Below are positions 2,752 through 13,692 of a DNA stretch of 14,794 nt, piece after piece. Position numbers and translations under genes: made by a program. The notes under the pieces were generated by a model that ran no database searches, was not told the origin of the DNA, and saw only the letters and a list, made by a program, of their open reading frames with translations. The stretch is from Candidatus Diapherotrites archaeon CG08_land_8_20_14_0_20_30_16. GTDB taxonomy: Archaea > Iainarchaeota > Iainarchaeia > Iainarchaeales > 0-14-0-20-30-16. How positions within the stretch are numbered: position 1 is the first letter of the stretch; each line of letters opens with the position of its first letter. The stretch covers positions 1 to 14,794 of the forward strand of contig PEXK01000044.1 of assembly GCA_002779075.1 (NCBI GenBank), given 5' to 3'.

Positions 2752-3720
2752 ATGAAATTTTCAATTTATGCATTGATAATTTGTTTTCTTTTATTTTTTG
2801 GGGTATATCTTGTGAACTTGTGTATTGAAAAAGTAACTTATGAGCAAGTTATTTTAGAAGATACTGGCATAAAGCAAACTAATTTGTATCCTACAGGTTA
2901 TATGTTTTTAGCAGACAAACAAAGAGATTCTTATGATATTGAGAGCTTTGTATATCTGCTACAAAACTCAAACTACGATGAATTAAAATCATTGCAAACA
3001 TCTTTGTTAGTAATTGATCCTGAGAATGGTGATGGTGAATTACAATTTACAAATGAGCAAATAAAAGACTTGCACAGTAACAAGAAATATGTAATTGCAT
3101 ACATTGACATTGGTGAAGCAGAGAATTGGCGAAGTTATTACAAAAATATGCCTAAAGATATAATAGGAATAGAAAATCCAGATTGGGAAGATTGTTTTTA
3201 TGTTGCTTTCTGGCAACCTTATTGGAAACAATTAACCTATTCTCGTATAGCAAATTATTTGGATAATGGTTATGATGGTGTTTATTTAGATCTGATTGAT
3301 GTTTATGAATATTGGCAAGAACAAGGTGTAAAAGACGCAAAGCAGAAAGCAATTGATTTTGTTAAAGATATTTCTGTGAAAGTAAAAGCAAAGAACTCCA
3401 ATTTATTAGTTATTCCACAGAATGCATTAGAATTATTAAAAGAAAATGATTATATTAATTACATTGATGGTATTGGTGCTGAAAGCACATTTTATGATAC
3501 TGATAAATCAGCATCTTGGTCTAAATGGGATTTAGAATATTTAGATTATGCCATATCTAAGGGACGGTTTGTTTTAAGTATAGATTATTCAAAGAAGTTA
3601 AACAATAGGTGCAATTTTGTTAATAAAGCAAAAGCACACAAGTTTGTTCCTTTTGTAGGCCCTAAAGATTTAGATTTATTTGTCCACTTTTCCTGTCCAG
3701 AAATAGGATACAGTCAATGA
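2752..3720 (+). CDS. Membrane-anchored TM1410/MJ1477-family putative glycoside hydrolase (GH114-like TIM barrel)
   Basis: N-terminal hydrophobic segment (IYALIICFLLFFGVYLVNL). The motifs LLVIDPENGDGE..., VIAYIDIGEAENWRSYY and GYDGVYLDLIDVYEYW match my recollection of the PF03537/TIGR01370 family signatures. No search was run. Confidence 0.6.
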   Translation: MKFSIYALIICFLLFFGVYLVNLCIEKVTYEQVILEDTGIKQTNLYPTGYMFLADKQRDSYDIESFVYLLQNSNYDELKSLQTSLLVIDPENGDGELQFTNEQIKDLHSNKKYVIAYIDIGEAENWRSYYKNMPKDIIGIENPDWEDCFYVAFWQPYWKQLTYSRIANYLDNGYDGVYLDLIDVYEYWQEQGVKDAKQKAIDFVKDISVKVKAKNSNLLVIPQNALELLKENDYINYIDGIGAESTFYDTDKSASWSKWDLEYLDYAISKGRFVLSIDYSKKLNNRCNFVNKAKAHKFVPFVGPKDLDLFVHFSCPEIGYSQ

Positions 3721-4796
3721 TATTTATGGAAAATAATTTAGTCTTAAAAAAAATATTAAACAAAAGCTGGTTTGGTGGTGTTCGCGATGATAGTAATCTT
3801 TTCTTTTTTGATTTGCGGGCATTAGGAGAAGCAAAATATATCCCCAAAGAATATTGTGTGATGCCAAAATTATTATTGCCAAAAGACAACAAAATGATTA
3901 GATGTTTTTCTAAAGAAGATGCTAAGAAATTCCATTTAACAACTTATAAACGGTTGAAACAAAACCCAAAAGTATTTGCTAATTTGTTTGAGTCTGATTT
4001 TGAACTTTGGAAAAATGCAAAATTACTAAAGGTTGTAGATTCTAAGACTTTTCTTAAAGCAGTAGAAATATATCAGAAACACTGTGCTAATTTTATGTTG
4101 GGTATTTCTTTTGGCATGGTCTGTGGTGATCACAAAGATTTGTTAAATGCAAAATTAGTTGCAAGACTATATAAACAACACGACAAATGGCGCAACACAA
4201 TAACTTTTTATGAAGAACAATTGCTTAAGAAAATAGAGGATTATTTAATTGCGAATGATTTGAAAACTTTTAACACAATTTCTTTTACTGAGTTTAAAAA
4301 ATTTTGCAAGGACAAAACTGCTTTGACAGATTTAATTAAGAAACGACATAATAAGAAATTAGTTTATGTTTTTTATGGTAAACATTCTTCTGTGATTACC
4401 AATCTTGTTGTAATAAATGCTATTGTGAATCATGTATTTCTGCAACAAATTTCAAAATCAAAAGAACTAAGCGGTAGAGTCGCATTTCAAACAAAAGAGT
4501 TTGTAGAAGGTAAAGCTGTTCTTATTCCTACACAAAAAGAATTAGATAAATATACTGCAAAAGATTTGGAAGGAAAAATTGTAGTTGCATTGCAAACAAC
4601 TCCGCATTATACCCCCTACATACATAAGGTTAAAGGAATTATCACTGATGAAGGGGGAATAACATCTCACGCAGCAATAGTGTCTAGAGAATTAGAAATA
4701 CCCTGTATTGTTGGAACACAAAATGCTACAAAACAGATTAAGACTGGCGATAAAATAAGAATGAATTTAAAAACAGGAAAAGTAATTATATTATAA
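3717..4796 (+). CDS. Protein with a PEP-utilising-enzyme mobile (swivel phospho-histidine) domain and an uncharacterised helical N-terminal region
   Basis: The C-terminal ~90 aa (GIITDEGGITSHAAIVSRELEIPCIVGT) is the classic PF00391 swivel domain with the TSH phospho-His site. I recognise no ATP-grasp or PEP/pyruvate-binding TIM domain in the first ~270 aa. The ATG overlaps the upstream stop (ATGA). Confidence 0.75.
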   Translation: MIFMENNLVLKKILNKSWFGGVRDDSNLFFFDLRALGEAKYIPKEYCVMPKLLLPKDNKMIRCFSKEDAKKFHLTTYKRLKQNPKVFANLFESDFELWKNAKLLKVVDSKTFLKAVEIYQKHCANFMLGISFGMVCGDHKDLLNAKLVARLYKQHDKWRNTITFYEEQLLKKIEDYLIANDLKTFNTISFTEFKKFCKDKTALTDLIKKRHNKKLVYVFYGKHSSVITNLVVINAIVNHVFLQQISKSKELSGRVAFQTKEFVEGKAVLIPTQKELDKYTAKDLEGKIVVALQTTPHYTPYIHKVKGIITDEGGITSHAAIVSRELEIPCIVGTQNATKQIKTGDKIRMNLKTGKVIIL

Positions 4797-4804
4797 GTGA
4801 AATT

Positions 4805-5530
4805 ATGGTCACAAGATACAAACCAAAACAGATTTATTTGAAACATGGTAATTTGGTTAAACAATCAAGAGCTATGGCAATAGTTGCAAGGCATAGTATT
4901 AATGCTGGTTTTAATCTAGATTTAAATGGAAGACGACAAGCTTTTTGGGCAGGATCTAAATTGCCTTCTGGTTTTGAGATAATTTCCGCAGGCTCAAAAT
5001 TTGATAGAACACTAGAAACAATAGATTATGCAACACAAGGTTATGATTCAGCAAAAACTGGGAGAACAACAAAAGGAATTGCAGATGAAAGATTGAAAAA
5101 AGGGCAGTTAACAGATGCAGAAAAAGCTGAACTTCAGACAAGAAATAGAATTAATGAAATTTTAAGTGCTTTAGATGCAAGAAAACCAATTCAAGAATTA
5201 AAAAAATTGGGACAACAACTTTTAAAATTTATGATTACAGAAATTGCTAAGTCAGTAAAACAACAAAGAAAACCTTTGGGTTTATATGTTACCCACGAAG
5301 GTGCAGAAATAGCAATATTTTCTGCATTAGGAATTATAAAAGAGAAAGAAGACATTGAAAAGATATTTGGAAAGCGAAAACCTACAAAATTAGTTAAAGA
5401 TGCTGGCCCAAATTTAACACATACAGAAGGCATTTTATTTTACTTTTTGCAAAATGGTAGAATTATAATGTCATTTAGAAAAAAGAAATTTGATATTACA
5501 CGATTTATAGAAAATAACATAAACTATTAA
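4805..5530 (+). CDS. Hypothetical protein, possible divergent histidine-phosphatase superfamily member
   Basis: IVARHS..N (RHG-like motif with S for G), L.GRRQA...G.KL...EIISAGSKFDRTLET (resembles LTxxGxxQA...SSPLxRAxQT) and YVTHEGAEIAIFSALG (resembles VSHGGxIRALL). Motif-level resemblance only. Confidence 0.45.
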   Translation: MVTRYKPKQIYLKHGNLVKQSRAMAIVARHSINAGFNLDLNGRRQAFWAGSKLPSGFEIISAGSKFDRTLETIDYATQGYDSAKTGRTTKGIADERLKKGQLTDAEKAELQTRNRINEILSALDARKPIQELKKLGQQLLKFMITEIAKSVKQQRKPLGLYVTHEGAEIAIFSALGIIKEKEDIEKIFGKRKPTKLVKDAGPNLTHTEGILFYFLQNGRIIMSFRKKKFDITRFIENNINY

Positions 5531-5558
5531 TAAAAAAAAGAAAAAAGAATGGCAGAAT

Positions 5559-7394
5559 TTATTTACTGCCACCAGTTCCAAACAGTCTTGAGAAGTTAAA
5601 GAAGTTTCCGAACTTGTTTGCTTCATTATTTAGTTCTTTTGTTTGTTCTTCCAACACTTTTATTGTTTCTGGATCATTAATATTTCTATCTACTATTCTT
5701 TGTTTAATTGCTTTTAACTTATCTGCTTTTTCTTGCATTTTATTTGCATAATCATCATTGCCGAATAAATAGCTGAAGAAACCTAATTCTTTTTGGTCTT
5801 CAAGGGTATTATCTATTGTGTCACCAAGTTCATAAGCAAGTGCAGGATCAATAGATAACCATTTATCTGCTAATTTATATAAATCATGATCTACTAGTTT
5901 CACTCCAAATTGCCTGCATAAATTATTAACCATAAATTTAGCTACAGTTTCTGGGTTTGACTTAGCTGTATTGCAGTTTTCGACCATTTTTTGTTTAGAA
6001 GCACAATCTAATGCTGCATTTGCTAAACATTTAGCGCCTTCAAGTTTCATCATGTTTACGCCACTCATCATATTAGATGATTCTATTTTACACTTATAAT
6101 TTGCTTTTTCTTTCATGTCTTCAATATTAATCATCTCTTGTGGTAAATACATTTCAATAATTTCATCATCAGTTAAGTCGCACATCATTTCTGGACTGCC
6201 TTGAGGTCCACCACCCATACCGGGTTGCTGGGGGCCTATTACTGAAGATTTATAAAAATCGTTTTTTGTACAATCATCATGACAGTTCTCAGGATTTTCT
6301 CCTAAATCAGGTTCACAATAATTGTTGCCACAAATTGCTTTTTTTGGTTGTTCTGATGCTAAACCAAATAAGCCAACAGGATTTTTTGGAATAATTGTAA
6401 TTGCTGTTTTTGTAGAAACTGGTTCAGAATCAGATTCCTTTTGTTCTGGCTCTGATTCAACAGGTTGAGTTGTTGTCTCGTCAGGTTGTGTTGGTTCACT
6501 AGGTTGTGTTATTTCATCAGATTGGGTGGTAGTGGTAGGAAGCTTCTCAGTCTGGTCTTCTGAATTTTGTTGGTTTATTTCATCTTGCTTTGGTTCTTTT
6601 ATATCTTCTTTATATTCTGGTTCTTTCCACTCTTCTTTATATTTGGATTCTTTTATTTCTTGTTTTACTTCTTGCATTTTAGGTATATAGAAATCAGGCA
6701 ATTTTATTTCTGGGCCAGTGGTATCTTTAAATTTCTTTAATTCATTACACTTTGCTCTAAAATTTGAAAGTTGTGATTTTATTGATGTTTTTGCTTTTTC
6801 TGCATAAGCTTTTTTATTTTCAATTTCTTTGTTGAATTGTGCTTTGCAAATATCTATCATAAGATCTTCTGTCAAATCATTAGATGTTAATTTAGAGGGG
6901 TCTTTTCCCATTTTCTTTAAAATTATTTTTGCTTCTGGTGGCAAAGGAAGGTTTCCTTTCTGAAAGTTTTTACAAAATGATTCAGGATTGCATTCTTGCA
7001 CCTGAGACTCAAATTTTTTGCAGACATCTGATGTTTCTTCTGCATCTTTTATAATGTCTACTACTTTAGAAACAAGTTCTTCTTTATTTTTATCGCATTT
7101 TGTAATAACATCATTGCTATTAGAATAAATCCACATGTACACTGCAGTCATCCCTTCCATAAATTTCTGCTGAGCTACATATTCTGGATCAGCAAAACTT
7201 GAAAAAGGTAAACCGAAATCTAAATTAGAACCATTGTTCATTGGTGGTTGGCCTCCTGGCCCAAAACCTTTAGCAGGCTCACCAATTGGTGGTATTTCAT
7301 CAGGACCTTGTGAGCTAGTTTCAGCAAACACACCCCCAACAAGTAATGACAACATAAACAAAGTAAAAAATACTGATAAAATTTTCAATTGCAT
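5559..7394 (-). CDS. Secreted or surface Cys-rich protein with an acidic Pro/Thr/Glu-rich linker (hypothetical)
   Basis: ORF 5559..7409. I prefer the ATG at 7394 (MQLKILSVFFTLFMLSLLVGGVFA-ETS, signal-peptide-like) because GGAGGG sits 7 nt upstream of it. I count 16 Cys. A low-complexity KE/PT/QP linker spans about 6377-6662. No C-terminal TM segment and no recognisable domain. Confidence 0.7.
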   Translation of the reverse strand: MQLKILSVFFTLFMLSLLVGGVFAETSSQGPDEIPPIGEPAKGFGPGGQPPMNNGSNLDFGLPFSSFADPEYVAQQKFMEGMTAVYMWIYSNSNDVITKCDKNKEELVSKVVDIIKDAEETSDVCKKFESQVQECNPESFCKNFQKGNLPLPPEAKIILKKMGKDPSKLTSNDLTEDLMIDICKAQFNKEIENKKAYAEKAKTSIKSQLSNFRAKCNELKKFKDTTGPEIKLPDFYIPKMQEVKQEIKESKYKEEWKEPEYKEDIKEPKQDEINQQNSEDQTEKLPTTTTQSDEITQPSEPTQPDETTTQPVESEPEQKESDSEPVSTKTAITIIPKNPVGLFGLASEQPKKAICGNNYCEPDLGENPENCHDDCTKNDFYKSSVIGPQQPGMGGGPQGSPEMMCDLTDDEIIEMYLPQEMINIEDMKEKANYKCKIESSNMMSGVNMMKLEGAKCLANAALDCASKQKMVENCNTAKSNPETVAKFMVNNLCRQFGVKLVDHDLYKLADKWLSIDPALAYELGDTIDNTLEDQKELGFFSYLFGNDDYANKMQEKADKLKAIKQRIVDRNINDPETIKVLEEQTKELNNEANKFGNFFNFSRLFGTGGSK

Positions 7395-7557
7395 TTTAGT
7401 TCCCTCCAAAATATAATATTCCGTATCCTTTTATATTAGAAATTAGAAAAGAATAGTTCATACAAGTATATATACTTTTTGAATTTCTTATTATCAACAG
7501 TTTTTTATTCAACAGCATTTTAATAATACACGAAATTATACTGTTTAGTGTGATAAA

Positions 7558-8211
7558 ATGGAATCCATTAGTAACTTGCAAGACTTAAAAAAAGAGTTTC
7601 AACAAATATCTGATAATAACCTAGCAATGGATAAAAATAGTCTGTCTAGTGTGGGGTATATGGATATTGAAACAACTGGCTTGAGTTCTGAGCACAATCA
7701 TATAACTCTAATTGGTTTGCATTCTAGTGATGCAACAAGTGTTTACATTGACACACAGAATCACAAAAAAGCTTGTCAAGACATTGATAAGTGTAGGTAT
7801 TTGGTTACTTTTAATGGCAATAGATTTGATTTGCCCTTTATTAATAAACATTATGGCCTTCAATGTAACTTCAAATCAATAGACTTGATGTATTTATTTT
7901 GGCAAATGGGTTATTATGGCGGATTAAAGAAGGTTGAACAGCAATTGGGATTAAGCAGAATGTCAGAAGTTGAAGGCATGAAAGGTTCAGAGGCAGTTAC
8001 ACTTTGGCATAAGTACAAGGCCGGAAATCAAGAGGCTCTTAACAAATTAGTTAATTATAATATAGAAGATATTGTTAATCTTGAGGTTCTTTTTAATTTT
8101 GCTTTGCAAAGAGCACAAAACAATACTATTTCAAGCGATGAGTTGAAGCAAAACAAGAAAAACATTATGAATAGAATTAAGAATAATGAAAGTCTTTATA
8201 TTTGGGATTAA
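7558..8211 (+). CDS. RNase-H-like (DEDD) 3'-5' exonuclease domain protein, YprB/COG3359-like
   Basis: MDIETTGL (Exo I), VTFNGNRFDLPFI (Exo II) and YNIEDIVNLEVLF (Exo III). A TTTAATAATA TATA-like box lies ~30 nt upstream and there is no SD, so the transcript may be leaderless. Confidence 0.7.
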   Translation: MESISNLQDLKKEFQQISDNNLAMDKNSLSSVGYMDIETTGLSSEHNHITLIGLHSSDATSVYIDTQNHKKACQDIDKCRYLVTFNGNRFDLPFINKHYGLQCNFKSIDLMYLFWQMGYYGGLKKVEQQLGLSRMSEVEGMKGSEAVTLWHKYKAGNQEALNKLVNYNIEDIVNLEVLFNFALQRAQNNTISSDELKQNKKNIMNRIKNNESLYIWD

Positions 8212-8222
8212 GAGGTGTATTT

Positions 8223-10241
8223 ATGAGTGGTTTATCTTTTAAAGAAGAAATTTTACAAGGTATTCCTGAGGTTTTACCAGAATTAAAACCTTATGATCTC
8301 AAAATAAATCACGCTCCAAAAAGAAAAGATATTTTAACACATAAAGAAAAGGAATTAGCTTTACACAATGCCTTAAGATATTTTAAAGAGAAACATCATG
8401 CAATTCTTGCTCCTGAGTTTGCAAAAGAATTGGAAACATATGGTAGAATTTATATGTATAGATTCAAACCAGAATATGAAATTTATGCTCGACCAATTAA
8501 TGATTATCCTCACAAATCAATACAAGCAGCAGCAATTATGCACATGTATTTTAATAATTTAGATCCAAAAGTTGCTCAACATCCAGATGAATTAATTATA
8601 TATGGTGGAAATGGTGCAGCATTTCAGAATTGGGCTCAATTTAGATTAACAATGCAGTATTTAGCAACAATGACTGATGAACAAACTTTAGTTATGAATT
8701 CAGGTTTGCCTTTAGGATTATTTCCATCACATAAAGATGCACCAAGAGTTGTTATATCAAATGGAATGGTTATTCCAAATCATTCAAGTTTAGATGATTA
8801 TGAGAGAATGAATGTACTAGGGGTTTCACAATATGGACAAATGACTGCTGGTTCTGCAATGTATATTGGCCCACAAGGAATTGTTCATGGAACAACAATA
8901 ACTTTATTGAATGCAAGTAGAAAAATTGATAAAGATGCAAATGATTTAAAAGGAAAAGTATTTGTAAGTTCTGGTTTAGGTGGTATGTCTGGTGCTCAAG
9001 CAAAAGCAAGTGTAATTGCAGGTGGCATTGGTGTTATTGCAGAAATAAACCCAAAAGCAATTGAAAAAAGACATGAACAGAAATGGTTGGATGAAATTCA
9101 TTCCGATTTAACTAAATTATTGGAAAGAATAAATTTAGCAAAAGAAAAAAAAGAATCTGTATCTTTAGGATATCTAGGAAATATTGTTGATCTGTGGGAA
9201 TTTTTAGCAAAAGAGAATATTAATATTGATATAGGTTCGGATCAAACATCATTGCATAATCCTTTTGCTGGTGGTTATTATCCTGTAGGATTATCTTTTG
9301 AAGATTCTAAAAAAATGATGACTGAAAACCCAGAAAAATTTAAAGAGCTAGTACAAAAATCTTTAATTAGACAAGTTATTGCAATTAATAAATTAACATC
9401 AAGAGGAATGTATTTCTTTGATTATGGTAATGCATTTTTATTGCAAACAAGTAAAGCTGGTGCAGATATAATGAATGATGATAAAACTAAATTTAGGTAT
9501 CCATCATATGTTGAAGATATTATGGGACCGATATGTTTTGATTATGGTTTTGGTCCATTTAGATGGGTTTGTACATCAGCAGACAAAAAGGATTTAGAAG
9601 TAACTGATAAATTAGCTGCTGATGTTTTAGAAGAGCAAGCAAAAAATGCATCAAAAGAAATTAAACAACAAATATTAGATAATTTAAAATGGATAATTGA
9701 AGCACAAAAAAATAATTTAGTTGTTGGTTCACAAGCAAGAATACTATATTCTAATTGTGAAGGTCGAACTAAAATTGCAAAAGCATTTAATGATGCAGTA
9801 AACTCGAGAAAGATTTCTGGTCCAGTTGTTATTGGAAGAGATCATCATGATGTTTCTGGAACTGATTCCCCATATAGAGAAACATCAAATATCTATGATG
9901 GTTCGAGTTTTACTGCAGATATGGCAATACAAAATGTAATTGGTGATTCTTTTAGAGGTGCAACTTGGGTCAGTATTCACAATGGTGGCGGAGTTGGCTG
10001 GGGTGAAGTTATAAATGGCGGATTTGGAATGGTTTTAGATGGTTCTCAAGATTCAGATAGGAGATTAAATAGTATGATTCACTTTGATGTTAATAATGGT
10101 TTGGCAAGAAGAAGTTGGGCCGGTAATTCAGGTGCTCAATATTCAATAAAGAATGCAATGCAAAATGAGCCAAAGTTAAAGATTACTGTTCCATATAATG
10201 CACATAAAGAGCTAATTAAAAAGGCTTTGACTAAAAACTAA
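8223..10241 (+). CDS. hutU: Urocanate hydratase (urocanase), long ~670-aa form
   Basis: Diagnostic urocanase blocks: IYGGNGAAFQNW, GQMTAGS.MYIGPQGIVHGT, GLGGMSGAQ (NAD site), DQTSLHNP, GRDHHDVSGTDSPYRETSN and HNGGGVGWG. GAGGTG (8211-8216) precedes the ATG at 8223, so I prefer that to the TTG at 8202. Confidence 0.9.
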   Translation: MSGLSFKEEILQGIPEVLPELKPYDLKINHAPKRKDILTHKEKELALHNALRYFKEKHHAILAPEFAKELETYGRIYMYRFKPEYEIYARPINDYPHKSIQAAAIMHMYFNNLDPKVAQHPDELIIYGGNGAAFQNWAQFRLTMQYLATMTDEQTLVMNSGLPLGLFPSHKDAPRVVISNGMVIPNHSSLDDYERMNVLGVSQYGQMTAGSAMYIGPQGIVHGTTITLLNASRKIDKDANDLKGKVFVSSGLGGMSGAQAKASVIAGGIGVIAEINPKAIEKRHEQKWLDEIHSDLTKLLERINLAKEKKESVSLGYLGNIVDLWEFLAKENINIDIGSDQTSLHNPFAGGYYPVGLSFEDSKKMMTENPEKFKELVQKSLIRQVIAINKLTSRGMYFFDYGNAFLLQTSKAGADIMNDDKTKFRYPSYVEDIMGPICFDYGFGPFRWVCTSADKKDLEVTDKLAADVLEEQAKNASKEIKQQILDNLKWIIEAQKNNLVVGSQARILYSNCEGRTKIAKAFNDAVNSRKISGPVVIGRDHHDVSGTDSPYRETSNIYDGSSFTADMAIQNVIGDSFRGATWVSIHNGGGVGWGEVINGGFGMVLDGSQDSDRRLNSMIHFDVNNGLARRSWAGNSGAQYSIKNAMQNEPKLKITVPYNAHKELIKKALTKN

Positions 10242-10254
10242 ATATATTAGAGAT

Positions 10255-10494
10255 TTAGAGTTCTTCTAATTCTTTTTTTATTGTTTGTTTGTCAATACCT
10301 GTTTGATCTAAAAGAATATTAATTATGTTATTTAGTGTTCCTTGTGCGATTGGGTTGTGATTAGGTACAATTATAGTTTTGTTAATAGTTTCATTTTTTA
10401 ATTTAATGTGACTTCCAATTTGACTAATGATAAAATAGTTCTTTGTTTTAAGGTATTTAATTATATCTTGTGCAGACAAAATTAATTTAGGCAT
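10255..10494 (-). CDS. hicA: HicA-family toxin (mRNA interferase)
   Basis: 79 aa. GSHIKLKN...IVPNHNPIAQGTLNNIIN..GI matches the HicA/YcfA pattern (GSH...P.H....GTL..I). It overlaps the hicB stop by 8 nt. Confidence 0.8.
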   Translation of the reverse strand: MPKLILSAQDIIKYLKTKNYFIISQIGSHIKLKNETINKTIIVPNHNPIAQGTLNNIINILLDQTGIDKQTIKKELEEL

Positions 10495-10693
10495 AAATAG
10501 TCTCTGTTGTAGGCATATCTAATAATAATTCTATTTTTGGATCATTGTTATCAAAATGGAGTCTTACTGCATCTAATATATTTTTGAATAGTTCGTCCAA
10601 TGTATTGCCCTGTGTTGTAATTCCGGCTTCTAATGCAACAGCAACCCAAACACCATCTTCATCTTTTTCTATTTTAAAAACTAAACGATCCAT
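10487..10693 (-). CDS. hicB: HicB-like antitoxin, short form (UPF0150 N-terminal domain only)
   Basis: MDRLVFKIEKDEDGVWVAVALEAGITTQGNTLDELFKNILDAVRLHF is a typical HicB N-domain. The track ORF 10487..10840 extends upstream into the tRNA-Lys flank and repeat, so I truncate it to the internal ATG at 10693. Confidence 0.75.
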   Translation of the reverse strand: MDRLVFKIEKDEDGVWVAVALEAGITTQGNTLDELFKNILDAVRLHFDNNDPKIELLLDMPTTETIYA

Positions 10694-10743: not shown

Positions 10744-10759
10744 ATGACCCGGACGGGAT
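10744..10759 (-). repeat. Orphan copy of the tRNA-Lys 3' end (direct repeat of 10841-10856)
   Basis: ATGACCCGGACGGGAT occurs exactly at 10744-10759 and 10841-10856. The proximal copy is the last 15 nt of tRNA-Lys plus 1 flanking nt. Confidence 0.9.
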
Positions 10760-10840
10760 CCTCAAAACCCTTTTTAGAAAAGCGTTTATGGAAAACCCCA
10801 ATCCACATTTGTGTATTGAGTGGAATTTGCAATTCCACAA
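10760..10840 (-). mobile_element. 81-bp non-coding segment bracketed by the tRNA-Lys 3'-end repeats; possible integrative-element scar or miniature element
   Basis: Flanked by perfect 16-nt direct repeats. It contains the hairpin GTGGAATT-TGC-AATTCCAC (10820-10838), which ends 3 nt from the tRNA discriminator. No credible ORF. Confidence 0.35.
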
Positions 10841-10841
10841 A

Positions 10842-10915
10842 TGACCCGGACGGGATTCGAACCCGCGACACTTGGATTAAGAGTCCAATGCTCTACCAGA
10901 CTGAGCTACCAGGCC
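10842..10915 (-). tRNA. tRNA-Lys (anticodon CUU)
   Basis: Hand-folded cloverleaf on the - strand: GGCCTGG TA GCTC AGTCTGGTA GAGC A TTGGA CTCTTAA TCCAA GTGTC GCGGG TTCGAAT CCCGT CCGGGTC A. 74 nt, no encoded CCA, two G-U pairs in the acceptor stem. Confidence 0.9.
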
Positions 10916-11050: not shown

Positions 11051-11133
11051 CGCAGGAAGAGGGATTCGAACCCTCGCCTCCTTTCGGAGTTTAGATTAGC
11101 AGTCTAACGCGTTAACCACTCCGCCATCCCTGC
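11051..11133 (-). tRNA. tRNA-Ser (anticodon GCU), class II with long variable arm
   Basis: GCAGGGA TG GCG GAGTGGTTAA CGC G TTAGA CTGCTAA TCTAA ACTCCGAAAGGAGGC GAGGG TTCGAAT CCCTC TTCCTGC G. 83 nt, no CCA. Confidence 0.9.
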
Positions 11134-11156: not shown

Positions 11157-11229
11157 TGACCCTGGCCGGAGTTGGACCGGCGATCTTCGCCACGTCAAGG
11201 CGACATCATAACCACTAGACCACAGGGTC
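11157..11229 (-). tRNA. tRNA-Val (anticodon GAC)
   Basis: GACCCTG TG GTCTAGTGGTTATGAT G TCGCC TTGACGT GGCGA AGATC GCCGG TCCAACT CCGGC CAGGGTC A. 73 nt. The T-loop reads TCCAACT, with C at the normally U55 position. Confidence 0.85.
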
Positions 11230-11287: not shown

Positions 11288-11304
11288 CGTCCCGTGCAGG
11301 ATTC
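11288..11304 (-). repeat. Orphan copy of the tRNA-Asn 3' end (direct repeat of 11394-11410)
   Basis: CGTCCCGTGCAGGATTC occurs exactly at 11288-11304 and 11394-11410. The proximal copy is the last 17 nt of tRNA-Asn, from the T-loop GAAT through the discriminator. Confidence 0.9.
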
Positions 11305-11393
11305 TAAGAACCTTTTGCATGATGTTTAAAAGCAAAATGTTCATGAAAAAACAAAGCCGTACACGGCTTTAGTGGAATGCAAGATTCCACAAG
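11305..11393 (-). mobile_element. 89-bp non-coding segment bracketed by the tRNA-Asn 3'-end repeats; possible integrative-element scar or miniature element
   Basis: Flanked by perfect 17-nt direct repeats. It contains the hairpin GTGGAAT-GCAAG-ATTCCAC (11372-11390), which ends 3 nt from the tRNA discriminator, plus a second hairpin with a T-run. Confidence 0.35.
11346..11370 (-). terminator. Stem-loop plus T6, terminator-like, downstream of tRNA-Asn
   Basis: The - strand reads AAAGCCGT GT ACGGCTTT G TTTTTT, an 8-bp GC-containing stem followed by an oligo-T. Confidence 0.5.
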
Positions 11394-11465
11394 CGTCCCG
11401 TGCAGGATTCGAACCTGCGACCTCTCGATTAACAGTCGAACGCACCACCGCTGTGCTAACGGGAC
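11394..11465 (-). tRNA. tRNA-Asn (anticodon GUU)
   Basis: GTCCCGT TA GCAC AGCGGTG GTGC G TTCGA CTGTTAA TCGAG AGGTC GCAGG TTCGAAT CCTGC ACGGGAC G. 72 nt, no CCA. Confidence 0.9.
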
Positions 11466-11600: not shown

Positions 11601-11869
11601 GCAAGGAACTAGATCGGGGGGTTAGTGGTCCCCTACCCAGAGAATCCACTTTACTCTGGATCGAAAAGCATTGAGGCGGCCCAAAGGTAATTATTGCATC
11701 AAAAATTTTGCCTTGAGGATCAGACTGCAAATGCTTTCTATTTAGAAACCCGCTAGGACAGGAATGGAGCAACGGTAACTATTTAGAAGGTAGTTTGTGG
11801 CCACCTGGTCTGAGTAAAATTTTGATTAACAATAGTTGTCCTGTAAGTCCACTCAATGAAGTTCCTTGC
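11601..11869 (+). ncRNA. Signal recognition particle RNA (archaeal 7S/SRP RNA) candidate
   Basis: A terminal helix forms between GCAAGGAAC (11601-11609) and GTTCCTTGC (11861-11869). Two 5' hairpins have complementary loops (GTGG 11625-11628, CCAC 11646-11649), as in the Alu-domain loop-loop contact. A long imperfect helix 5 includes CATTGAG 11669-11675 paired with CTCAATG 11852-11858 and AUCAGAC paired with GUCUGA. AGGACA-GGAA-TGGAGCAAC (11755-11773) closely resembles the conserved helix-8 motif (E. coli 4.5S AGGUCC-GGAA-GGAAGCAGC). A T5 run follows at 11874-11878. Hand fold only. Confidence 0.7.
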
Positions 11870-13252: not shown

Positions 13253-13480
13253 TTATATTTTTTCTAAAAACTCATCTCTTGTAATTCCCAAGTCTTTTTT
13301 AATTATTTTGTTAAGTAGTCCAGAACCTATTTCTTCTCCAGAATGGCAAGGAATAGTGGTTATTCTTCCATTTGGGTGTTTGTATACAATGTGACTTCCA
13401 GTAGTATGACTATAAAAAAATCCGAATTTCTCAACTATCTTTGCAACTTCTTTTCCAGTTAGTCTTGGAAGGTGTGACAA
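13253..13480 (-). CDS. hicA: HicA-family toxin (second copy)
   Basis: 75 aa. LTGKEVAKIVEKFGF...TGSHIVYKHPNGRITTIPCHSGEEIGSGLLNKIIKKDLGI is the HicA pattern. Confidence 0.85.
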   Translation of the reverse strand: MSHLPRLTGKEVAKIVEKFGFFYSHTTGSHIVYKHPNGRITTIPCHSGEEIGSGLLNKIIKKDLGITRDEFLEKI

Positions 13481-13482
13481 AA

Positions 13483-13692
13483 TTACACCTCTATTTGTTG
13501 TACTCCCACAAATTGTTGAAAAACATCTATTTTGCTACTGTTTGTTTCAAGGTACGCTTGAATTGCCTCTTTTGTTCTTTCTATTAATTCATTCATAGTT
13601 TTTGCCTGTGTATGACAACCAGGTAATCCTAAGACTTCAGAAACTAACCAGCCATCTTCATCTTTTTCTATAATTAGAGTATATTTTGCCAT
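13483..13692 (-). CDS. hicB: HicB-like antitoxin, short form (second copy)
   Basis: MAKYTLIIEKDEDGWLVSEVLGLPGCHTQAKTMNELIERTKEAIQAYLE is a HicB/UPF0150 N-domain. It ends 2 nt upstream of hicA-2. Confidence 0.8.
   Translation of the reverse strand: MAKYTLIIEKDEDGWLVSEVLGLPGCHTQAKTMNELIERTKEAIQAYLETNSSKIDVFQQFVGVQQIEV

Follow-up and report, generated by a model that had tools for sequence, protein, structure and literature searches.

Two exact copies of a 17-nucleotide (nt) sequence from the 3′ end of a tRNA-Asn gene bracket 89 bp of non-coding DNA in Candidatus Diapherotrites archaeon CG08_land_8_20_14_0_20_30_16. From the sequence and its relatives, the two copies are probably (we put this at roughly 55%) an attL/attR-like pair of attachment (att) sites, left by a recombination event that crossed over within the T-loop of tRNA-Asn, and the insert between them would be either a miniature element or the stump of a larger one. 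The stretch analysed, referred to here as the window, is the 14,794 nt of contig PEXK01000044.1 (assembly GCA_002779075.1), and window coordinates refer to the whole of it. Partial tRNA copies are a standard marker by which integrated viruses and plasmids are delimited, normally with kilobases of DNA in between. Here, the signature brackets ~90 bp of hairpins in a DPANN archaeon (Iainarchaeota; ~30% G+C) with a small genome, and it is found at three tRNA species and turns over between sister lineages. The class of signature is known; what is unusual is the size of the inserts, their family character and their occurrence in a mixed tandem array.

Only two occurrences of the 17-mer, CGTCCCGTGCAGGATTC, are present in the window, at 11288-11304 and 11394-11410. 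Allowing up to two mismatches revealed no others anywhere in the window, and 200 dinucleotide-preserving shuffles yielded 0 matches. The proximal copy (11394-11410, minus strand), the putative attL-like core, forms the last 17 nt of tRNA-Asn(GTT), from G57 to G73, and comprises four nt of the T-loop, the 3′ strand of the T-stem, the 3′ strand of the acceptor stem and the discriminator. The tRNA gene itself is intact and has no encoded CCA; it lies on the minus strand at 11394-11465 according to Rfam (RF00005, 68.9 bits) and at 11393-11465 according to ARAGORN. The distal copy (11288-11304, minus strand), the putative attR-like core, is contained in no tRNA gene and is an orphan. The copies are 106 bp apart from start to start. 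Independent ENA, JGI and Logan contigs are 100% identical to the window across the parts of the region that they cover, and the repeat structure is therefore not an assembly artefact. A direct repeat drawn from the 3′ part of a tRNA gene, one copy lying within the intact tRNA and the other forming an orphan fragment, is the arrangement that marks a tRNA-targeted integrative element. The repeat also runs from a symmetric loop, the T-loop, to the tRNA 3′ end, spanning positions 57-73 in tRNA-Asn and starting at 53-59 and ending at 73-74 in the other cases described below.

Read in the sense of the tRNA, the 89-bp interior (11305-11393) contains no open reading frame (ORF) and consists of a 2-nt spacer followed by three hairpins, all annotated on the minus strand. 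The first, hp1 (GTGGAATGCAAGATTCCAC, 11372-11390), is a 7-bp hairpin with arms GTGGAAT/ATTCCAC that starts 2 nt past the tRNA 3′ end; it was recognized from sequence and fold, and it is the hallmark of the cassette family. The second, hp2, is an 8-bp, G+C-containing stem-loop (11352-11371) followed by a run of six T residues (T6, 11346-11351), and a terminator scan together with the fold identifies the whole (11346-11371) as terminator-like. The third hairpin, GAACCTTTTGC...GCAAAATGTTC (11308-11342), lies beside a right-end motif, AAAAGGTTC; a repeat search and the alignment of cassettes show it to be the hp3 of the other family members. The tRNA-Asn trailer folds more stably than shuffled sequence (z = -2.6), and a search of Rfam at permissive thresholds returned tRNAs and noise only.

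tRNA-Asn belongs to a minus-strand cluster that also includes tRNA-Lys(CTT) at 10842-10915, tRNA-Ser(GCT) at 11051-11133 and tRNA-Val(GAC) at 11157-11229. tRNA-Lys, called as intact by ARAGORN and Rfam, bears a second instance of the same architecture. Its own 16-nt repeat, ATGACCCGGACGGGAT, is present in exact copies at 10744-10759 and 10841-10856 (minus strand), the proximal of which extends from A59 in the T-loop to 1 nt past the discriminator, while the distal copy is followed by a hicB-hicA module. A repeat search located the hp1 of this cassette, GTGGAATTTGCAATTCCAC (10820-10838, minus strand; arms GTGGAATT/AATTCCAC), and its 7-bp stem is identical to that of the Asn insert. No copies of the 3′ ends of tRNA-Ser or tRNA-Val were found anywhere in the window.

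The structure had first been proposed in an original prediction made from the letters of this DNA alone. Its coordinates for the 17-nt copy, and the identity of that copy with the 3′ end of tRNA-Asn, agree with the window search and with Rfam and ARAGORN. The 89 non-coding bp that it described were recovered by measurement, the hairpin near the tRNA, shared with the Lys insert, and the stem-loop with its T6 were both located, the repeat at tRNA-Lys was found, and tRNA-Ser and tRNA-Val proved to be without repeats, as it had stated. It also held that the Lys and Asn repeats were independent of one another. This stands in so far as each repeat matches its own tRNA, but the interiors belong to one cassette family, sharing the same hp1 stem, and the Asn-type hairpin of the window is found at the tRNA-Lys of a related lineage (L009, described below).

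The family was defined in a comparison set of 88 Iainarchaeota loci (1.2 Mb, with 85 tRNAs called by ARAGORN), individual members of which are designated by L numbers. FtsZ relatives in the genome collection are labelled Candidatus Iainarchaeum, Diapherotrites or archaeon; most contigs of the additional FtsZ relatives stop before or within the tRNA cluster, and no new lineages were gained from them. A downstream copy of at least 11 nt of the tRNA's own 3′ end was found for 8 of the 85 tRNAs. Six of these eight are accounted for by the cassettes of the window, L009, L012 and L018; the remaining two are 11-12-nt matches lying 0.7 and 5.3 kb away.

Alignment shows that six inserts of 81-95 bp carry one ordered series of motifs: TT, hp1 with the centre ATT-GCA-AAT, hp2, (T/G)AAC, hp3, a right end of the form AAAAAGG(G)TTTG, and a T-loop remnant. 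In short, the layout is hp1, a variable hp2, and hp3 with the AAAAAGGTTTG right end. The cassettes are located at tRNA-Lys, tRNA-Asn and tRNA-Ser(CGA) in closely related Iainarchaeota. Across the six, 97.6% of hp1 cells are paired, compensatory double changes are seen in four of the seven pairs, and the observed score was reached by none of 500 shuffles. The GTGG..CCAC-type hp1 is a marker of repeat-flanked inserts. The Lys cassettes of the window and of L012 are 90% identical over 60 nt. The exact repeats are 14-22 nt in length; their right boundary is fixed (73/74), while the left varies between positions 53 and 59, possibly through later decay. No inverted repeats between insert ends were detected in any of the five element regions, where the hairpins are internal only. 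An nhmmer profile built from the six cassettes recovered no additional members from the 1.2 Mb of related loci, nor were cassette copies found there away from tRNA 3′ ends; 15-18 kb of the window's own genome was covered.

The clearest comparative evidence comes from L011 and L012, sister lineages with 93.6% nucleotide identity in ftsZ. In L011, tRNA-Lys is directly adjoined by its flank, with no insert. L012 corresponds to L011 plus a clean insertion right behind tRNA-Lys, and beyond the distal copy in L012 the alignment to the immediate tRNA flank of L011 resumes. Within the insert lie an hp1 altered in a compensatory manner (GTGGATT/AATCCAC), a further hairpin, a CCTTTTT..AAAAGG palindrome and the copy of the tRNA-Lys 3′ end. 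The two lineages thus present an occupied and an empty tRNA-Lys site with flanks preserved, as a tRNA-targeted element would leave them. Further away, in L018 (76% FtsZ protein identity), the same layout is found at tRNA-Ser(CGA), where the repeat is 17 nt long and the interior 95 nt, and no such repeat is present in its sister L015 (89% ftsZ identity). At tRNA-Asn, neither L011 nor L012 has the repeat, and in L009, whose ftsZ is 85% identical to that of the window, no more than a 10-nt part of the Asn repeat is found, 47 nt away from the tRNA-Asn gene. Within the population of the window, 13 contigs are 100% or >99.9% identical over the regions that they cover, and no presence/absence of inserts was seen among them. 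A metagenome scan for the pattern of hp1 plus tRNA end found, among the matches listed, the L009 population only.

The original prediction had named two findings that would speak against it: a genome-wide scan without further cases, and a distal copy that forms part of a conserved functional element unrelated to recombination. Further cases did turn up in relatives, at tRNA-Lys in L012 and L009 and at tRNA-Ser(CGA) in L018. A conserved functional element is not borne out, the copy being missing in L011 at both tRNA-Lys and tRNA-Asn, missing in L012 at tRNA-Asn, and reduced to the 10-nt remnant at tRNA-Asn in L009.

In L009, the arrangement at tRNA-Lys (8485-8767, minus strand) is composite, consisting of the tRNA gene, a first cassette, a 22-nt copy of the tRNA-Asn 3′ end (8582-8604), a second cassette and a copy of the tRNA-Lys 3′ end (8485-8507). 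Over 22 nt, the hp1 of the first cassette has 95% identity with that of the window's Asn cassette. An identical 16-nt stretch (AAAAAGGTTTGTTCG plus one base), made up of the right-end motif and the start of the T-loop, crosses the junction into each orphan copy. Neither cassette has matching flanking repeats; the composite does. The second cassette is homologous to the short trailer of L009's own tRNA-Asn, with which it has ..TTTCGTAAACATTTTTGT.. in common.

These arrangements suggest a pathway in which the incoming DNA would bring its own copy of the segment from T-loop to discriminator, together with ~89 bp of hairpin-rich, coding-free sequence. The 5′ part of the resident tRNA would be joined to the incoming 3′ end, so that the gene stays intact and is now trailed by hp1 and a stem-loop/oligo-T terminator, and the resident 3′ end would be shifted 106 bp downstream as the orphan copy. 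The orphan would retain its T-loop and be usable as a secondary site, which would explain the tandem array of L009: there, an Asn-derived unit may have recombined into the distal Lys T-loop site via the common AAAAAGGTTTG-TTCG junction. The predicted circular or attP junction reads ...AAAAGGTTCTTA-GAATCCTGCACGGGACG-CTTGTGGAAT... The DNA of the T-arm, an inverted repeat around a 7-nt loop, has the core-site geometry of tyrosine recombinases, and a crossover in the T-loop would fit best. The cassette may be mobile in its own right, as a miniature non-autonomous element, or it may be a stump left by aberrant excision or deletion of a larger one; excision via a secondary site at a fixed distance from attP would also yield a narrow range of sizes.

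The recombination put forward in the original prediction is supported by the anatomy of the locus and by the comparative data. It is from these that we infer it, along with the crossover in the T-loop, a site-specific recombinase acting in trans and the assignment of the incoming and original copies, since neither a recombinase nor a circular form nor an autonomous partner came to light. Several observations weigh against the reading of the copies as an attL/attR-like pair. Neither the window nor the extended contigs encode an integrase or any other recombinase, and no autonomous element with the same ends or with the predicted attP was found in the viral, phage and plasmid sequences searched. 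Scans of viral contigs with the Asn core, and with the right-end motif plus T-loop, gave 0 hits each; the Lys core gave 21 matches, all of them within high-GC coding sequence, and the Ser core a single match within a phage tRNA-Cys gene, all of which are attributable to chance. Searches of phages and plasmids with the 89-bp interior returned nothing meaningful. A 106-bp circle is an implausible substrate for recombination, and one cassette family bearing the 3′ ends of three tRNAs is not easily explained by classical attP-carried identity. The left boundary of the repeats shifts between positions 53 and 59. Hairpins directly behind tRNA genes are common across the clade even where repeats are lacking (16 of 84 tRNAs, against 1.9% of random positions), which makes some of the cassette's features generic to trailers or terminators. 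Finally, the comparison of flanks at tRNA-Asn is not clean, because the downstream gene differs among lineages, being tRNA-Val in the window and L009 and tRNA-Ser in L011 and L012.

Among the alternatives, a miniature transposon-like element would create the repeats by staggered cuts in the T-loop and just past the discriminator, gap repair then duplicating a target of 16-22 bp, in a manner comparable with the action of casposases or Cas1 at tRNA 3′ regions. Duplication of the target would automatically, and most simply, provide each cassette with the 3′ end of its own tRNA, be it Lys, Asn or Ser, and casposons are known to target tRNA 3′ regions, to generate long duplications and to form tandem arrays (PMC4779613). 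A structure resembling an excision footprint is also present in L091 (8887-8922, minus strand), where the final 21 nt of an intron-containing tRNA-Asn, GTTCAAGTCCTACCGGGGGCG, extending from T-loop to discriminator, are repeated in direct tandem with no spacer; this duplication may be an excision footprint or a product of replication slippage. Nevertheless we regard such an element as unlikely, given that no cassette has end-to-end inverted repeats, that neither Cas1 nor a transposase is encoded in the window or the extended contigs, and that the length of the repeat is unfixed (14-22 nt) with a shifting left boundary. The single cassettes of L009 lack matching flanking repeats, which only the composite possesses, and the 1.2 Mb of related sequence holds no copies off tRNA 3′ ends. 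Local recombination without any dedicated mobile element, whether illegitimate, facilitated by homology or due to template switching at conserved tRNA sequence, might alternatively have patched the 3′ end and trailer of a foreign allele in beside the resident 3′ end. Exchange at tRNA genes does take place in this population: in L132, one of the 13 contigs mentioned above, 99.9% identity with the window extends as far as the 5′ end of tRNA-Ser and gives way there to a different tRNA-Val(GAC) and flank (L132 1-201 compared with the window from 11134 onward), a breakpoint so exact that tRNA genes can be taken as points of recombination between strains. In L056 (127-251, minus strand), 12 nt separate a complete intron-less tRNA-Asn from an additional 3′ half, which begins in the anticodon loop and has a different acceptor strand. 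The two halves have 29 nt in common and the second acceptor strand matches the tRNA-Asn of other lineages. This looks like replacement of the 5′ part of tRNA-Asn or of the entire gene. Trailer hairpins and CCTTTTT..AAAAAGG palindromes, the latter present also between other tRNAs of the window, are moreover generic intergenic motifs here. What such exchange leaves unexplained is the constant junction in the T-loop, the narrow range of 81-95 bp with hp1, hp2 and hp3 in the same order at three tRNAs, and the clean gain or loss between sister lineages, and we consider it quite improbable as the source of the cassettes.

Selection for a functional module, such as a terminator or processing signal of the tRNA, a small RNA, or a decoy att site that diverts integrases, would account for the maintenance of hp1 by compensatory changes, for trailer folds that beat shuffled sequence with z-scores of -2.6 to -3.4, and for the stem-loop with T6 positioned 23 nt past the tRNA. 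It is very unlikely to be the explanation, as the module is missing at the same tRNA in sister lineages, has no match in Rfam, diverges fast in its interior and has an orphan copy that decays in L009 and L012; a role in termination would in any case account for the hairpins and not for the duplicated tRNA end. It is extremely improbable that the 106 bp represent a non-canonical intron in the T-loop, with the distal copy as the true 3′ exon. tRNA genes of distant Iainarchaeota, including those for tRNA-Asn, are rich in introns, and pairing between the distal copy and the 5′ strands of the tRNA is possible in principle. The proximal copy, though, already completes a canonical tRNA (68.9 bits), and a constrained fold in which pairing of the distal copy was enforced gave no bulge-helix-bulge at the junction; the start of the putative intron would equal the start of exon 2, which should rule out a 4-bp central helix.

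Other readings were also set aside. A tandem duplication of the tRNA end with its flank is contradicted by the unrelated sequences behind the two copies, and a primer-binding site of retroviral type by a copy that is in tRNA sense with no CCA complement before it. Elements of the IS200/IS605 type, or otherwise associated with palindromes, insert with no target duplication; hairpins are present here, but every insert has a direct repeat of 14-22 nt. A miniature inverted-repeat transposable element (MITE) or casposon with terminal inverted repeats was discarded on finding internal hairpins only. Of the orphan tRNA 3′ ends seen in distant loci, most proved to belong to intron-containing tRNA genes missed by ARAGORN and were not fragments. 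Such genes, which carry one long intron or two, located in the D-loop region and behind the anticodon, include tRNA-Asn in L058, L067, L078, L082 and L091, tRNA-Glu in L025 and L065, and tRNA-Ser in L068 and L082. They escape the bacterial mode of ARAGORN; the tRNA-Asn genes of the window's clade are intron-less.

The recombination of att-like sites that we favour has close parallels among the T-loop class of tyrosine integrase sites. The attP core of mycobacteriophage Ms6 comprises 26 nt from the T-loop to tRNA-Ala's 3′ terminus, and the 7-nt T-loop is the likely site of strand exchange (PMC1762012). The cassettes resemble these sites in having an intact tRNA at one junction, an orphan 3′ fragment at the other, a symmetric T-arm core and a 7-nt overlap. 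They differ in that the inserts are only 81-95 bp long, without integrase or any ORF, and in that three tRNA 3′ ends occur in one family; an attP-bearing replicon matching them was not found in the viral-contig, phage and plasmid searches. In archaea, one complete and one partial tRNA copy are the standard mark of integrated elements (PMC9897764, PMC3293823). Those of Thermococcales and Caldiarchaeum share with the present case the partial tRNA copy, the archaeal host, the hot-spot tRNA locus and variable neighbouring genes, whereas they measure 9-23 kb (PMC9897764) or, in a case with a recombinase, 1.8 kb (PMC3293823), that is 1.8-23 kb overall, carry recombinase or viral genes and are bounded by repeats of ~44 bp. 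The insert described here is ~100-fold smaller and coding-free. Casposons likewise insert at the 3′-distal region of tRNA genes, with duplications of 14 bp (up to 35 bp) and tandem arrays that share a duplication, but they have terminal inverted repeats, Cas1 and PolB, neither the repeats nor the genes being found here (PMC4779613).

Two further classes of non-autonomous element offer a conceptual comparison. Cis-mobilizable elements (CIMEs) are derivatives of integrative elements that keep only their att sites and depend on an enzyme supplied in trans; they are bacterial and kilobase-sized. MITEs are miniature derivatives of transposons with terminal inverted repeats and short duplications. 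The cassettes would share with both the concept of a coding-free miniature that retains recombination ends only and is served by an enzyme in trans. To our knowledge, a ~90-bp cassette flanked by att-like tRNA repeats belongs to no described class.

It is possible, though we are inclined to doubt it, that the 81-95 bp cassettes are themselves mobile. They would then be the smallest known integrative elements, made up of att arms plus a trailer hairpin/terminator and moving by T-loop recombination among Iainarchaeota tRNA genes with the help of a host recombinase or of an integrase provided in trans by an unseen element. Each orphan site would become the next landing pad, so that arrays grow and tRNA loci turn into hot spots of gene turnover. 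Should the cassettes move, a tRNA attachment site alone could act as a parasitic unit, and the family would offer a handle on Iainarchaeota recombinases and mobile elements. As scars, they would instead document that integration and loss took place repeatedly at these tRNA genes, which would fit the variable gene content beside tRNA-Lys. On either reading, orphan fragments of this kind can mislead tRNA annotation and the prediction of prophage boundaries.

The window encodes FtsZ, methionyl-tRNA synthetase (MetRS), dUTPase, the signal recognition particle (SRP) RNA and two hicAB modules, to which the extended contigs add an XPG/FEN1-type nuclease. Relatives with 91% FtsZ identity share the order MetRS, dUTPase, RNase_H-like gene, variable segment, tRNA cluster, SRP RNA, FtsZ, FEN1. 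Gene content beside the tRNA cluster differs among relatives (window 8202-10693 and 2752-7409). The interval from the RNase_H-like gene to tRNA-Lys is occupied by a urocanase-like gene and hicAB in the window and by a sulfatase in L011 and L012, and measures ~240 bp in L009. Four genes at 2752-7409, between dUTPase and the RNase_H-like gene, occur in the window only; they encode a GH114 protein, a PEP-utilizer-domain protein and two proteins without a family match. In the window (11157-11229) and in L009 (9116-9188), tRNA-Asn and tRNA-Ser are separated by tRNA-Val(GAC), which is missing from that position in L011 and L012.

Several assemblies, made independently from related populations, end in or near tRNA-Asn or the cassettes: L123 and L124 begin inside tRNA-Asn and L006 inside the Lys cassette, and L116 and L121 are further examples. 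These breaks fit strain heterogeneity or repeats at the locus. A separate family of tRNA-linked repeats is found in L015, where a module of ~75 nt, CTAGCCTTTTA..AAAGGCTAAG.TTGCCAAAA.TGGG.CCATCTTCG...CTCGATA.CCCTTAC, lies directly upstream of tRNA-Glu and tRNA-Lys (8438-8515 and 9081-9156). The top Rfam model for the SRP RNA of the window (11604-11866, plus strand) is 'Bacteria_large_SRP' (79 bits) and not an archaeal SRP model. The two hicA/hicB pairs (10255-10693 and 13253-13692) stand on either side of the tRNA/SRP/FtsZ region, and a ParE toxin gene lies just past the end of the window in the extended contigs.

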